From positions 4,749 to 68,748 of the forward strand of contig CAMKKS010000001.1 of NCBI GenBank assembly GCA_946413485.1: a stretch of DNA of 64,000 bases, given 5' to 3'. Position numbers and translations under genes: made by a program. Shown here in pieces: positions 55,907 to 59,786 of the stretch. The notes below the pieces were generated by a model that did not search any database, had not been told where the DNA came from, and saw only the letters and a program-made list of their open reading frames with translations. Positions within the stretch are counted from its first letter, which is position 1; each line of letters begins with the position of its first letter. Source of the stretch: an uncultured Rickettsiales bacterium. Its GTDB lineage: Bacteria; Pseudomonadota; Alphaproteobacteria; Rickettsiales; Deianiraeaceae.

Positions 55907-57004
55907 TTATAAAAATCTATAATCCGCTTGAAAAAATCCTGGATAAACTCCTCCGTCTTTTGATCTTAAATTAAGTTTAACAAGCAAACCGTTTAATTCA
56001 ATTTTTATATCAACTCTTTTTGCACTTCCGTAAGGATAAATTATTTCAGCATTTTTTACATTTAAAATGTTTTCTAATGAAATTTCAGTCATTTCCTTTA
56101 CATGAACTTTCCCTTTACTGTTATGAACAAAAATATATCCATAGCCAATAACTGATTTCATAAAATTTTTAAATAAAATTGATTTTTGTAAAATAGATGT
56201 TATATCTATTATTTCCTTTTTATTTTTCTCTTTTTTATAGTTATTAAAAACATTACAGAATTTTACAGGATCAATTGCTAGCATTTCTAAAAGCTGAAGA
56301 GCATTTTTGTTTTCTATTCGCCCCCTTTCAATTTCGTCTTGGAATAAAAACTTCTTTGTTCCTATGTTACAAAAAGTTACAGTTTCACCTGATTTTAATG
56401 ATAAATAAACATCATAAGTATTTTGTGTAAATATATTTTTAAATCTTAAAGTAATATCTGAAATAATATGACCGATATTAAAATCATCACCACCACAAAA
56501 AATACCGTTAGAACTGAAAGTAAATGGTCGTTTTTTATTTAATACTCCCTCAGGAATTATCTCAGCCAAAACATAATTTTCTTTTTGACAGATTTTTAAA
56601 ATATCATCAATACCATCTTTAAAATTATAATCTTCAGAATTTACAAATTTTTGAAGTGCTTCTGCAAAATCTCTTTCAAATTTTAAACCTAAATTTATTC
56701 TTGCTCCTCCGCTTCTACCACTTGGTTTTGCGAAAATATAATATTTGTTTCGTGTGTCAGAAGTAAGTTCCACTCTTCCTATTCCACTTCCTGCACCATG
56801 AGGATTATAAAAAGCATTTTCATTTTTAAAAATATCAGCGATTTTTTGTAAAAGATTTATTCTTTCAGAATCTTTAATAAAAACACTAATTTTATTATCT
56901 TTAACCTTATAATCTTTAATATTATGTTTATTTAAAGTATTTAAAATTGAATTGATTTTTTCTGAATTTGCTTTTTCAAGCATCATAAATTCTTTAAAAT
57001 TCAT
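55907..57004 (-). CDS. nuclease-like protein, paralogue of 36015-37115, CTS-like N-terminus
   Basis: Start moved to MNFKEFMMLE/K (track start 57055 runs into a hairpin repeat); ISDITLRF..YDVYLSLKSG; LQLLEMLAIDPVKFCNVF; IGYGYIFVHNSKGKVHVKEMT; KLNLRSKDGGVYP. Confidence 0.4.
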   Translation of the reverse strand: MNFKEFMMLEKANSEKINSILNTLNKHNIKDYKVKDNKISVFIKDSERINLLQKIADIFKNENAFYNPHGAGSGIGRVELTSDTRNKYYIFAKPSGRSGGARINLGLKFERDFAEALQKFVNSEDYNFKDGIDDILKICQKENYVLAEIIPEGVLNKKRPFTFSSNGIFCGGDDFNIGHIISDITLRFKNIFTQNTYDVYLSLKSGETVTFCNIGTKKFLFQDEIERGRIENKNALQLLEMLAIDPVKFCNVFNNYKKEKNKKEIIDITSILQKSILFKNFMKSVIGYGYIFVHNSKGKVHVKEMTEISLENILNVKNAEIIYPYGSAKRVDIKIELNGLLVKLNLRSKDGGVYPGFFQADYRFL

Positions 57005-57027
57005 TTTTAACCGTAAAATAAAATACA

Positions 57028-57215
57028 ACGTAATGAACTTTTCACAAATCTTCATAACGTATTTTTTATAACGTAATGAACTTTTTGTTAAAACTCATAA
57101 CGTATTTTTTAAAAGATCAAAAAATTTTTTTATATCTGTATATTATATAATAAAACAAAAAATTTTAAAACACTCAAAAATAACGTAATGAGCTTTTAAG
57201 AAAAGTCTATTACGT
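57028..57215. repeat. three ACGTAAT-family hairpins
   Basis: 57028-57060, 57071-57103, 57183-57215, with TATATCTGTATATTATATAATAAAA element between. Confidence 0.6.
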
Positions 57216-57220
57216 TGTTT

Positions 57221-58039
57221 TTATATCTTTGAAATTCCTGATTTTAAATCTTTAAAAAGATCAGGATCCTTCGATGTTTGCGGCATTTCGCCACGGTTCG
57301 GAGCATTCAAAATCGGTGTGTTATTAACTTTCATATTTAAACAATTATTTAAAATTGCTTCTAAAGGATTGTCATAATACTTTTGAAGTTTTCTAATTGT
57401 TTCTTTAGGGCAGTCTTTTAAATAATCTTTTAAATCAGATTTAGAACATTTAAAAAGGTTCTTTCCTTCAACATTTTTAATAACGAGCTTTCCTAGGTTC
57501 GAACCGATTGTTGCTTGGACAGCTTTTAACATGCTTAACGGGCTTAAATTTCCTGAAATATTGATACATTCAATATTTGCGTCAGGATTAGTCGCAAAAA
57601 TTTCAGACCATCTGTGATGACCGTCAATAATAAAAGTTCCTTGAAACGTTACAACCGGGTGTTTTATCATCACTGAAGGTTCAAAACACATATCGATGTG
57701 TTCACCTTTCATAAGATATTTCAAAGTCTCGTCTAAACCTATCTCATTTTGTGTAGGAATAAGCTTCACAGCAGCAATGTTTGTTTTCTGAAGCTTTAAT
57801 TTTAAATCTGCGAACTTCCCACCAAATCCTAAACTCAAAATAAATTTTAATTTAGGATCTTTTACGATATCATCGATAAATTCAACAGCTTCAGGGTATT
57901 TTTTCCCTAAAAGCATAGATATCAGCTCATTATAAAGTTCCTTTTGAACTTTAAGATTATCAATATTTTTATCTTCTATTGTTTTATTCAACTCTTTTTT
58001 GTCTGAAGAGTTAGATTCTAAAAATTGTCTAAAGTTCAT
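57221..58039 (-). CDS. ParB/Srx-fold (ParB-like nuclease domain) protein with leader-like N-terminus
   Basis: ..VVTFQGTFIIDGHHRWSEIFATNPD.. contains the DGHHR signature of ParB N-terminal/sulfiredoxin-fold domains; N-terminus MNFRQFLESNS. Confidence 0.55.
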   Translation of the reverse strand: MNFRQFLESNSSDKKELNKTIEDKNIDNLKVQKELYNELISMLLGKKYPEAVEFIDDIVKDPKLKFILSLGFGGKFADLKLKLQKTNIAAVKLIPTQNEIGLDETLKYLMKGEHIDMCFEPSVMIKHPVVTFQGTFIIDGHHRWSEIFATNPDANIECINISGNLSPLSMLKAVQATIGSNLGKLVIKNVEGKNLFKCSKSDLKDYLKDCPKETIRKLQKYYDNPLEAILNNCLNMKVNNTPILNAPNRGEMPQTSKDPDLFKDLKSGISKI

Positions 58040-58840
58040 TTAAAAAATTATCTTCCATGTTACTTTAATTTCGGTTGAGTCGTCTTTAACTTTAGCTGGG
58101 AAACACTTCATACTGAATAATCGGTCATTAACATACAATCCGGCTTCAGTGAATAAAGTTGTAGCTCCGTAAAATCCTTCGTCAGCTGCAGAATGCTGGT
58201 TGTTACCTTGATCTTTAGGAATTGAAAAAGTGAAAATACATGTCGTTCTGTCTAAAAGATCTTCTTCCTCTTCAGAAAGAGCGGTTAAAACAGAACAGCC
58301 TCTAAAAAGAGAGTCGCCGATTGCTTTATTATTTGAGTTCGTTCCTACAGTATAAGATACAGGACCCTCTAAAGAAAAATCAATTTCATAAACATAAGGT
58401 TTTGAACATTTAATAAATTTAGTTGTATTAGAAAGATTATTTACAGATATATTAACGCCTTGAGTATCTGTATCAATATATCTATAAAATTGATTATCTA
58501 CTTTAATAACATTAAATTTTTTTAAATCAACAGAAGAGTCTAAGCTTACAGTTCTAAATCCTTCTTCAGCATAAGTTGTCTGAGGCATTTTATCTTTGTT
58601 AAATCCTGATTCTTCTGATTTTGGATAATATTCTGAAATATATCCGCCTTCAGTTCCTAAAATAAATTTATTGGCAAATTCTTTAGAATTATTTTTTGAA
58701 TTTAAAAATATTTCAGCCATCGAACGTCTGGCAGATCTCATAATCGTATTATGCTCTTCAAAAGAGTCAATTACTTTTCCGTCTTTTATACATTCAATTT
58801 TAAAATATCCTTCAAAACCTGTTTTGATTTTATCCTGCAT
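58040..58840 (-). CDS. hypothetical protein (probably structural)
   Basis: 266-aa ORF abutting 57221-58039. Confidence 0.45.
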   Translation of the reverse strand: MQDKIKTGFEGYFKIECIKDGKVIDSFEEHNTIMRSARRSMAEIFLNSKNNSKEFANKFILGTEGGYISEYYPKSEESGFNKDKMPQTTYAEEGFRTVSLDSSVDLKKFNVIKVDNQFYRYIDTDTQGVNISVNNLSNTTKFIKCSKPYVYEIDFSLEGPVSYTVGTNSNNKAIGDSLFRGCSVLTALSEEEEDLLDRTTCIFTFSIPKDQGNNQHSAADEGFYGATTLFTEAGLYVNDRLFSMKCFPAKVKDDSTEIKVTWKIIF

Positions 58841-58851
58841 CTTTCTTTCTC

Positions 58852-59112
58852 TTAATATGATAATTCAAAAAATACTAAAATTTGTAATGTGCTGTTTTTT
58901 GACGCTCTATAAAGCTTTTTATTTTGAGTGTTAAACCAGAATAAAGAGTCATTATCAGCTTCAGCATAGGTCGGTGGTGTGTCCTGCTCAATCACTTTTA
59001 TATAGCTCTTTAGAGTCTCAGGAATTCCATGGGCTCTCCAAAGAGCTTCAACTGCGTGTTGAGCTGTCATTCCGCAACCATAAGGTGAAAAATTTTCATT
59101 TGTGAATGACAT
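58852..59112 (-). CDS. hypothetical small protein
   Basis: 86-aa ORF. Confidence 0.45.
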   Translation of the reverse strand: MSFTNENFSPYGCGMTAQHAVEALWRAHGIPETLKSYIKVIEQDTPPTYAEADNDSLFWFNTQNKKLYRASKNSTLQILVFFELSY

Positions 59113-59123
59113 ATTTTATCCTC

Positions 59124-59786
59124 TTAAAAATCGTATGTTATATAAGATTTATCATCAGAATATTTACTATATTCATTAAATGTTATAAAACATGAATTCT
59201 TTTTAGAATAAGCTTCAGAATCTTTGATTTTTACTTTTTCAACTGATAAAACACTCTTTTCGTCAGGGAAAACATAAGAACCGTTTTTAGGCGCCTGACC
59301 TTGAGCAAACTTATTTCCTAATTCTTCAACGGTAGCATCAGCTTTACCGTATGATTTAACTCTGAAGAAAAACCAGCTTCCACCCTTCTTTGAAGCTAAA
59401 ATTGTACCTGGTGGGCAGAGTTCTTTAATTCCTATCATTTCGTCAAATTTATAATCTAAGCAAAGCCAGATAGCACCGGAATTTTCAGCAATTCTGAAAA
59501 CCCAGAAGATTTGACCGGTTTTATCGTCTTTGATATCTTTTTCATAAACCCATTGTAAGTTAGGAATATATTTTGGTCTTTTGGTAATAGTATTTAAGAG
59601 CTTTACAACGTCGTCTTTCGTTCTACAGTTCTTAAGACCTTTCTTTAAATCTGCGGCTTTAAAATATTCTTTTGTTTCGTCAGTATAACTGATTTTATCA
59701 AAATTTAAGCCAACTGCTTTACCAACATAATATTTAATAGTATCAACGGCTTCTGAAAGTTGTGAAACATAATCAATAAAATTCAT
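59124..59786 (-). CDS. hypothetical protein with CTS-like N-terminus
   Basis: 220 aa; MNFIDYVSQLSE/AVD. Confidence 0.55.
   Translation of the reverse strand: MNFIDYVSQLSEAVDTIKYYVGKAVGLNFDKISYTDETKEYFKAADLKKGLKNCRTKDDVVKLLNTITKRPKYIPNLQWVYEKDIKDDKTGQIFWVFRIAENSGAIWLCLDYKFDEMIGIKELCPPGTILASKKGGSWFFFRVKSYGKADATVEELGNKFAQGQAPKNGSYVFPDEKSVLSVEKVKIKDSEAYSKKNSCFITFNEYSKYSDDKSYITYDF

Follow-up and report, generated by a model that had tools for sequence, protein, structure and literature searches.

A leader resembling the T4 capsid-targeting sequence on unrelated, partly enzyme-like proteins of an uncultivated T4-like phage

The Locus and Its Tagged Genes

The DNA considered here, a 64 kb stretch of contig CAMKKS010000001.1 (hereafter the window), is part of the genome of an uncultivated T4-like myovirus. 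Its region 55907-59786, and many further sites across the window, carry genes whose products share a short N-terminal leader on otherwise mostly unrelated bodies, among them proteins with enzyme folds. This leader is probably the phage's version of the capsid-targeting sequence (CTS) of phage T4, by which the tagged proteins would be loaded into the head, trimmed and expelled together with the DNA. The window harbors a T4-type structural module with a Portal_T4 portal, a tail sheath, three tail-tube paralogues and a gp2-like DNA end protector, which continues with a Peptidase_S77 prohead protease, a T4_CASP scaffold, a gp23 capsid protein, a T4-type terminase and a gp15-like protein. The major capsid protein (43518-45020, −) shares 60% identity with the Vibrio phage Va1 group and about 43% with the Campylobacter phage CP220 group, and an identical protein is present in many further metagenomic samples. 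At the DNA level, neither the head module nor the region 55907-59786 had a match among 50,697 phage records. An exact-protein look-up located the window at about 76,386-140,385 of a metagenomic contig of 178,656 bp (ENA ERZ12289774 NODE_41). The phage is known solely from metagenomes; G+C content ranges from 26 to 33% across the window (29% is quoted for the genome).

Within the region 55907-59786, the leader MNFKEFMMLE/K (the slash denotes the predicted cut) precedes a 365-aa protein (55907-57004, −; phrog_8438) with a HinP1I-like PD-(D/E)xK-type nuclease fold, as assigned by AlphaFold2 (AF2) modeling and Foldseek. The gene at 57221-58039 (−) starts with MNFRQFLE/S and encodes a ParB/Srx-like protein of 272 aa with an IDGHHRW motif; its match to Pfam ParBc_2 is weak (E 0.003, 18 bits, below the curated cutoff of 23.6). 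An ORFan of 220 aa (59124-59786, −) with the leader MNFIDYVSQLSE/A opens a late operon that is closed by the ParB-like gene. Elsewhere, a second nuclease-fold paralogue of 366 aa (36015-37115, −; phrog_8438) begins with MFKNFKELAE/A, and MDFIKYLKE/A precedes a predicted fusion of an Rnl2-like RNA ligase with a PPAT-NMNAT-like nucleotidyltransferase (465 aa; 39626-41023, −; AF2, Foldseek). The leader MLFKEFLSSLNE/A is found on a DUF285/PARCEL repeat protein of 220 aa (7634-8296, −; Pfam DUF285 3e-50, NCBIfam PARCEL repeat). Smaller tagged proteins, recognized by their N-termini, comprise one of 185 aa with MLFKEYLKNINE/A and no family match among Pfam and phrog profiles (3152-3709, −), one of 124 aa with MFKDFLVE/A (3826-4200, −), one of 94 aa with MNFTNYFLNE/A (246-530, −) and one of 131 aa with MNFKDFFNLNE/S (53281-53676, +). 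Finally, a tandem array of six small internal-protein-like genes, all starting M[NS]FK[ED] and with bodies unrelated by BLAST, lies directly downstream of the tail sheath gene (27429-29691, −). PADLOC gave no match for the tagged proteins, and NCBIfam matched them only with generic nucleotidyltransferase and PARCEL-repeat models.

The original prediction had counted at least 17 such genes. All N-termini quoted there were found at their coordinates and strand, including the start of the first nuclease-fold gene at 57004: although the open reading frame extends to 57055, the upstream ATG lies within a conserved terminator-like hairpin and a homologue with 99% identity departs from the window sequence ahead of MNFKEF, so that the shorter start is right. 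Sixteen members are solid (ten outside the array and six inside), while MKFLTERIINE/A, the leader of an acidic-tailed HIGH-type nucleotidyltransferase of 345 aa (38557-39594, −; Pfam CTP_transf_like, TIGR00125), has become doubtful: the F-x-x-[F/Y] pair is missing, and residues 1-25 align with the linker that joins the two domains in the ligase-nucleotidyltransferase fusion family. That one tag sits on unrelated bodies was borne out by an all-against-all BLAST of the leader-trimmed proteins, in which the two nuclease-fold paralogues were the sole related pair. Up to three more candidates can be named, i.e. 38320-38553 (MEFLEYLE/L), which was absent from the original list, a 502-aa protein with MEKLFE/A (51702-53210, −; late box TATAAATA, described below, at −40) and a large protein with MDLNTIFE/A (59828-62113, −). 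The latter two have no aromatic pair, yet display a short hydrophobic-x-E/A start; they may be further substrates of the prohead protease. The homologue of the 502-aa protein in contig L020 begins MNMFYESMLNE/A, and in contig L005 a GIY-YIG endonuclease gene splits the homologue of this gene.

Both ends of the leader stand out statistically among the 78 curated genes on which all gene counts rest. The start motif M-x(0-1)-F-x-x-[F/Y] occurs in 17 of them, with about 1.0 expected from the internal F-x-x-[F/Y] frequency of the same proteins (binomial P 3e-16); one of the 17 is a false positive (the lipoprotein-like 26252-26548), and the additional candidate 38320-38553 is also counted among the 17. 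When all ATGs on both strands were scanned, the strict form M-x-F-x-x-[F/Y] was confined to real gene starts. A predicted cut [LIVM]-x-E-A at residues 4-16 is present in 13 of the 78 proteins versus 1.2 expected (roughly tenfold, P 3e-10), among them nine leader proteins together with the major capsid protein and the scaffold protein. The leaders measure 8-14 residues, and eight of the eleven originally listed finish in hydrophobic-x-E/A, the exceptions being MMLE/K (55907-57004), QFLE/S (57221-58039) and NLNE/S (53281-53676).

Leader Anatomy and Head Machinery

The consensus in the window reads MNFKE[F/Y]LxE/A, with aromatic residues at positions 3 and 6, a hydrophobic residue at 7 and Glu at 9, usually followed by Ala. 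In the T4 record, the internal proteins IPII and IPIII start with MKTYQEFIAE/A and IPI with MKTFKEFTSTTTPVSTITE/A (MKTFKEF...ITE/A). In the CTS of T4 IPIII, residues 4 and 7 (Y4, F7) mediate targeting and residues 8 and 10 (I8, E10) processing, and the prohead protease gp21 cleaves after L/I-x-E (PMC9026906). The window leader has this very layout moved by one residue, its minimal versions showing F3, F/Y6, L/I/V7 and E9. A T4-type CTS is an extension of about 10-19 residues at the very N-terminus. The window leader matches it in being such an extension with an aromatic pair and a gp21-type cut, in the company of a suitable protease and scaffold, and in its placement on unrelated bodies. At the level of sequence, the match is to an experimentally defined signal rather than to a vague pattern. 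In the AF2 models, the predicted local distance difference test (pLDDT) score falls below 50 at residues 1-6 of the nuclease-fold protein and 1-15 of the ligase fusion, i.e. the tag is modeled outside either fold. A start similar to the ipI core MKTFKEF is also found next to ipI in T4 itself, where gene 57B (L003, 11953-12411) begins MMEFKDFS.

The window encodes the machinery that such a tag would require. The prohead protease (45979-46929, −; Peptidase_S77, T4 gp21 family; phrog_207, PF03420) carries a site of its own, INE23/A, which is kept in contig L020 (INE/ATGKSEKKYK), and contains 16 [L/I]xE sites versus 6 expected. The scaffolding core protein, identified by its family match to T4_CASP (45058-45906, −), starts with MLEQFKEVLGE/A and contains 15 such sites versus 7 expected. 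The gp23-family major capsid protein has a propeptide of about 55 aa with four [L/I/V]xE sites (LSE7/A, VLE23/S, LIE43/N and LSE55/G), while the 445 residues of the mature capsid protein contain none of the [L/I]xE type versus 2.2 expected, a deficit that is not significant alone and counts only beside the four propeptide sites. The cleavage rule deduced from the sites of these classical substrates is the same rule that terminates the leaders.

Modularity and Conservation of the Tag

The two nuclease-fold paralogues, which share 36% identity, illustrate best that the tag is an add-on. The AF2 model of the 55907-57004 protein, built from a family alignment, reached a pLDDT of 84 with a disordered leader block. 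Its sole significant Foldseek match in the PDB was the restriction endonuclease HinP1I (E 1.5e-4, template modeling score 0.31-0.41), and E110 as well as D183-x18-S202-x-K204 are invariant across 34 homologues; a PDB sequence search with the family profile gave no match. Ser202 occupies the position where the PD-(D/E)xK constellation normally has an acidic residue or Gln. The structural match and the invariant E/D/K residues are in line with the nuclease-like character originally assigned to both paralogues, which are best described as putative nucleases of predicted PD-(D/E)xK-type fold with an unusual Ser. Tagged family members begin, for example, MITFDEFINE/AYSFIPKS, MLNFSQFMSE/AYSFIPKS, MLSFTDYLEE/SYSFLPK or MKTFLKFADQLHE/GYTFIPKS. 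Untagged ones begin MAYSFIPKS, MAFTFIPKS, MAYNIVPKN or MAYDFFPKS, so that their first residues correspond to the position after the predicted cut. The orthologue in cyanophage S-RSM4 (S-RSM4_065) is likewise untagged (MAFNSIPKN), and orthologues of the 36015-37115 protein occur both with the tag (MKSFKNYYILSE/ATLSN) and without it (MATFSKADF). The leaderless starts are real, since S-RSM4_065, _064 and _063, Va1_166, CP220 gp026 and P0007 have either upstream in-frame stops or no leader-like sequence upstream; in-frame stops confirm the short starts in S-RSM4 and in contig L013. The original prediction had considered that the N-terminus might simply belong to the fold and be shared by homologues. 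Instead, the untagged orthologues start exactly at the predicted P1' residue, and the tag is thus modular.

A similar picture emerged for the ligase fusion at 39626-41023, whose AF2 model has a pLDDT of 88. By Foldseek, the N-terminal domain matches T4 RNA ligase 2 (E 1e-5) as well as 1s68, the T. brucei editing ligase and a tRNA ligase adenylyltransferase domain. Within the motif I HKTDG, K43, D45 and G46 are invariant in 38 sequences, and some of the 272 homologues carry PF09414. The C-terminal domain matches PPAT structures by profile (2e-6) and by Foldseek (about 4e-4), NMN adenylyltransferases being matched too. A PDB sequence search with the single ligase sequence gave no match. Foldseek, profile matches and the invariant motif I lysine agree with the ligase fusion that had originally been proposed, and we regard the protein as a predicted Rnl2-type RNA ligase fused to a PPAT/NMNAT-like nucleotidyltransferase. 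Among the best 120 metagenomic homologues, 116 place at least 9 extra residues, typically MNFxxYLNE/[AGS]K, ahead of the conserved QLDISI, and two are leaderless. Leaderless members of the family are P0161, P0222, Va1_166 and CP220 gp026; where the window protein begins MDFIKYLKE/AKQLDISILSAEKFL, Va1 has MSKQHLDISIKSADKIL (MSKQHLDISI) and CP220 MQKDQIDISILNANKYL (MQKDQIDISI).

The nucleotidyltransferase motifs are degenerate in this 465-aa fusion (GRFLNITDYH, with CSKDN replacing GSDR) and well kept in the adjoining gene 38557-39594 (GKFRILTNSH, LSASKV), which encodes an intact nucleotidyltransferase domain that starts at the former interdomain linker. From its sequence, the locus 38557-41023 looks like the outcome of a partial duplication with subsequent division of labor, and some relatives of 624-677 aa may hold the fusion and the intact domain in one protein. 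Two genes upstream of the ligase fusion, the window encodes a metallophosphoesterase, and a tagged P-loop kinase accompanies the set in contig L010. By analogy, the combination of metallophosphoesterase, kinase and ligase might recall RNA end-healing and sealing systems.

The ParB-like protein has 632 homologues, of which the best 120 share 57-87% identity with it, apart from one 99% identical fragment. Nearly all of these 120 begin with MKFSKLFE/HS, MKFISLFEE/S, MITFSEFRKLLE/SNSS or similar sequences. Hydrophobic-x-E is kept in the homologues of both the ligase fusion and the ParB-like protein, so that the (L/I)-x-E position, on whose conservation the original prediction had staked its reading, is indeed retained in relatives. 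A DUF285 homologue in the 197-kb contig L019 starts with LKFKHLNSLNE/G and adjoins a ParB-like gene. The 220-aa ORFan (59124-59786) retrieved only its own fragments among 1.84 billion representatives and nothing from the phage collection, and neither this protein nor the ParB-like one has a useful homologue among cultured phages.

In contig L010 (39.5% G+C), consecutive tagged genes encode a nuclease-fold protein, a DUF6267 protein, a nucleotidyltransferase and a Zeta/AAA_33 kinase, and contig L012 is similar. The leader is conserved at the protein level, since the codons in L010 and L012 differ from those of the window; overall, the pattern is kept with different codons over contigs of 32-40% G+C. 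Retention of the tag in hundreds of diverged homologues requires purifying selection. In Vibrio phage Va1 (194.9 kb), the closest cultured relative, about six small proteins (66-262 aa) bear the leader, with starts such as MNFKEYLN... and MKFKEYLNE. Their genes lie at record positions 46127, 64557, 65113, 65488, 144951 and 151235, and two of them adjoin portal and tail-tube genes; the ligase fusion of Va1 is untagged. Since Va1 shares the leader, the tag system is older than the window phage, and the sequences suggest that it is the spread of the tag onto enzymes that characterizes the uncultivated clade.

Distant T4-like phages contain a three-gene module of a restriction-fold protein, a DUF6267-type protein of about 400 aa and a small nucleotidyltransferase, found in cyanophage S-RSM4 (L014) at 4707-7614, in L010 at 6698-10813 and in L012 at 9391-12385. 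The module is untagged in S-RSM4, tagged in L010 and partly tagged in L012. DUF6267 is Pfam-confirmed only in L010, and the L012 protein of about 400 aa matches RNA_ligase weakly. Orthology of the window gene cluster with the module of L010 and S-RSM4 (apparently also L012) is not claimed, because pairwise BLAST did not link the 465-aa and 410-aa proteins of the window to the DUF6267 protein of L010.

Expression Context and Neighboring Genes

The genes for the tail sheath, portal, scaffold and tail tube are preceded, at a distance of 28-42 nt, by TATAAATA, a T4-type late promoter box. The same spacing is found at 246-530 (−40), 3152-3709 (−35), 36015-37115 (−29), 38557-39594 (−28), the operon carrying the ligase fusion, and 59124-59786, where the box at 59819-59826 (−) is located 40 nt upstream of the ORFan and would serve the operon from 59786 to 57221, the last gene of which encodes the ParB-like protein. 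As a word, TATAAATA is not over-represented in the window (30 sites versus about 31 expected), and only where it stands with respect to gene starts carries information. The late box is shared by tagged orthologues in L010, L012 and L019, while the leaderless S-RSM4 trio has none and adjoins the replication genes g41, uvsX and g43.

The window is furthermore rich in a repeated intergenic element. The 8-mer CATTACGT occurs 34 times versus 1.1 expected and contributes one of the two arms of a conserved, roughly 40-nt hairpin (AAAATACGTAATAGACTTTTCATAAAAGCTCATTACGT) that is followed by a T-run and often precedes TTTCC-TTATATAAAGATAT by 15-25 nt. It recurs between genes at about 25 or more places, for instance 3087-3125, 9439-9514, 11688-11720, 22655-22796, 35322-35354, 43196-43425, 51369-51454, 55809-55872 and 57028-57190, and copies flank the nuclease-fold gene 55907-57004. 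Judged from its sequence, the element has the appearance of a repeated cassette that combines a terminator with a promoter, and it resembles the promoter early stem-loop (PeSL) shuffling cassettes of T4-type phages. PeSL cassettes were considered as a DNA-level source of the shared protein start and rejected, because the published ones stop at the start codon (PMC2839356).

Several other genes border the tagged ones. Just downstream of 55907-57004 lies a flagellin-like phage gene (54913-55728, −; 271 aa, Flagellin_N and Flagellin_C, phrog_16088), and an HSP20 small heat-shock gene (37197-37796, −) is situated between the nucleotidyltransferase gene and the nuclease-fold gene 36015-37115. A cluster of seven tRNAs (4759-7075, −; Gln, Trp, Asn, Thr, Lys, one undetermined and Glu) separates tagged genes, and the three tail-tube paralogues (Phage_TTP_2) are arranged in tandem at 47999-49803 (−).

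Possible Functions of the Tagged Proteins

How could the leader work? As in T4, it would represent an N-terminal propeptide of about 8-14 residues, whose aromatic residues at i and i+3 dock the cargo on the scaffolding core during prohead assembly. The gp21-type Peptidase_S77 would then remove the propeptide after hydrophobic-x-Glu, usually before Ala, Ser or Gly, which would leave the mature cargo free within the head. The tag appears to have been grafted far beyond small internal proteins, i.e. onto the array and the ORFans, and also onto the ligase fusion, the two restriction-fold paralogues, the ParB/Srx-like protein and the DUF285 protein. Like T4 IPI-III and Alt, all of these would most likely be synthesized late, enter the prohead, lose their propeptide there and reach the next host together with the DNA. 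The ready-made protein cargo that this phage ships is thus probably much larger than that of T4. Core binding, cleavage, copy number, ejection and a role in anti-defence or RNA repair are what we infer for this phage. As regards the original prediction of an injected, tagged arsenal, its sequence-level part has held up (CTS anatomy, protease and scaffold, modularity, conservation, unrelated bodies), with the exception of the doubtful member 38557-39594.

Several observations weigh against this interpretation. The apparent leader of 38557-39594 probably derives from a domain linker. The 55907-57004 protein has Lys at P1', and the ParB-like one has Phe at P3. The gene of the former lacks TATAAATA, being preceded by a sigma-70-like promoter and two hairpins. 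Internal [L/I]xE sites in the tagged bodies number 34 versus 40.6 expected, which is the right direction, but the difference is not significant and the depletion is hence not used as evidence. The nearest cultured relatives have no tagged enzymes. To pass the tail, proteins of 40-53 kDa have to be slender or else unfold. Finally, the ParB-like protein and the ligase fusion are conserved and core-like, so that a structural or assembly role fits them at least as well as variable anti-defence.

The last point leads to a serious alternative to injection, even if we consider it unlikely. The tag may well target the prohead core, with the proteins acting there or in the filled head, either in assembly (like T4 gp67 and gp68) or in organizing the DNA or its ends, or being cleared before packaging. 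With 632 and 272 homologues, respectively, the ParB-like protein and the ligase fusion indeed behave as conserved core genes, whereas the internal proteins of T4 are hypervariable. Moreover, the start of the scaffold itself, MLEQFKEVLGE/A, resembles the tag, T4 core proteins are likewise gp21 substrates (PMC9026906), and the nuclease-fold proteins, in which S-x-K replaces D/E/Q-x-K, may bind DNA instead of cutting it. However, enzyme folds that keep their catalytic residues, as in the HIGH-type nucleotidyltransferase or with the motif I lysine of Rnl2, argue for catalysis on substrates in the host cell; internal cleavage sites are enriched in the scaffold but not in the tagged bodies; and T4 IPI-III and Alt, which bear the same type of tag, are ejected (PMC9026906, PMC9391042).

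Considerably less probable is a shared start that acts on the mRNA, as an initiation enhancer or translational operator, or that directs the proteins to another destination or partner. The AT-rich codons ATG AAT TTT AAA GAA TTT behind a uniform AAGGA ribosome-binding site would suit such a role, and the nuclease-like gene 55907-57004 is not under a late promoter. A comparable start, MMEFKDFS, is borne by T4 gene 57B, for which we know of no evidence that its product is a head protein. An mRNA-level feature would, however, hardly explain why the amino-acid pattern survives codon change on contigs of 32-40% G+C with conservative substitutions (F/Y and L/I/V/M), or why leaderless orthologues begin exactly past the Glu. 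The hydrophobic-x-E followed by a small residue is moreover the specificity seen in the phage's own capsid propeptide, scaffold and protease, and the motif is nearly identical to the experimentally defined CTS. Chance or compositional bias in a 29% G+C genome, where N, F, K, E and Y are common, and hitch-hiking of 5' ends with the intergenic hairpin cassettes, which could mediate shuffling, are effectively refuted by the start-motif statistics without wrong-frame matches, by the end of PeSL cassettes at the start codon (PMC2839356) and by the retention of the tag in hundreds of diverged homologues.

Returning to injection, a more ambitious version can be put forward tentatively. A large and abundant, uncultivated T4-like clade could pre-load a conserved set of nucleic-acid enzymes by means of the CTS, so that these act before any phage expression. 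The set would comprise the Rnl2-type ligase/nucleotidyltransferase, the restriction-fold nucleases and the ParB-like protein, joined in relatives by the P-loop kinase and DUF6267. One possible role would be immediate RNA repair or anti-defence, aimed at anticodon nucleases and comparable systems of first response. Orthologues elsewhere, as in S-RSM4, are untagged and would be ordinary cytoplasmic enzymes, so that gain of the tag would switch an enzyme from being made after infection to being delivered with it.

If the proteins are packaged, T4-type heads would be natural protein-delivery vehicles at a far larger scale than T4 implies, with an RNA ligase and nuclease-fold proteins as cargo beyond small inhibitors. 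Three questions would become testable: which host defences need an answer within seconds of DNA entry, how a tag of about nine residues recruits arbitrary proteins to the scaffolding core, and how phages turn ordinary early enzymes into injected ones by gain or loss of the tag. The pairs of tagged and untagged orthologues offer ready-made comparisons for this purpose. Furthermore, the tag provides a simple sequence rule for mining metagenomes for candidates of injected proteins, and engineered protein delivery by phages could draw on it for alternative targeting sequences.

Comparison with Known Systems

The closest parallel is provided by the internal proteins of T4. They share with the window proteins a short tag with aromatic residues at i and i+3, a hydrophobic-x-Glu cut before Ala and unrelated bodies, the FKEF core of IPI being identical to that of window leaders; both phages also have a gp21-family protease, a gp22-type scaffold and small hypervariable cargo genes in tandem. 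T-even internal proteins are diverse, "with only a conserved CTS", and IPI and IPIII are counter-defence factors (PMC3012670, PMC9026906, PMC9391042). The CTS has been treated already as a modular loader of diverse proteins in T4-like phages (PMC3012670, PMC9026906), and one review even proposes that it is a device of evolution by which various proteins are loaded. In contrast to T4, the aromatic pair in the window is one residue nearer to Met1, and at least 16 tagged genes are found in 64 kb versus three internal proteins in the whole of T4. Its cargo also includes proteins of 220-465 aa with enzyme folds, and several of the tagged proteins are widely conserved rather than hypervariable.

An enzyme in the prohead core is not without precedent. 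The T4 ADP-ribosyltransferase Alt is located there, has its N-terminus trimmed by gp21 and is injected (PMC9026906). Alt is a single enzyme that is processed at its C-terminus too, whereas the window encodes several unrelated nucleic-acid enzymes, as predicted, with a tag of the internal-protein type. In giant phages such as phiKZ, 201phi2-1 and SPN3US, the head contains dozens of proteins, virion RNA polymerase subunits among them, and a gp21-related protease cuts after Glu (PMC5694885, PMC9026906). They belong to another lineage, however, and their propeptides are mostly longer than 100 residues, with an S/A-x-E motif and no common short tag. The Dar system of phage P1 (DarB) delivers a large enzyme with an N-terminal capsid-loading signal to counter host defence (PMC9024508), but has no consensus tag, a stepwise and partner-dependent loading and no T4-type core.

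No survey of CTS-tagged enzymes in T4-like phages was found in the literature, most subscription journals being outside our reach, and within the same scope no natural CTS-tagged RNA ligase, nuclease-fold or ParB-like protein and no pairs of tagged and untagged orthologues were encountered. The original prediction was not aware of any description of such a strategy. This calls for qualification with respect to the CTS concept, Alt and engineered enzyme cargo, all of which are known, while the breadth of the natural enzyme cargo indeed appears undescribed. For engineered fusions of the T4 CTS or IPIII with β-galactosidase, staphylococcal nuclease, EcoRI, GFP or luciferase, the tag alone suffices for loading, and each head takes up 20-200 copies (PMC9026906, PMC3012670). 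These are constructs made in the laboratory, of which the window, known here from its genes alone, looks like the natural counterpart. Taken together, the mechanism is known from T4, and it is the breadth of the cargo, its enzymatic nature and its wide conservation that appear to be new.

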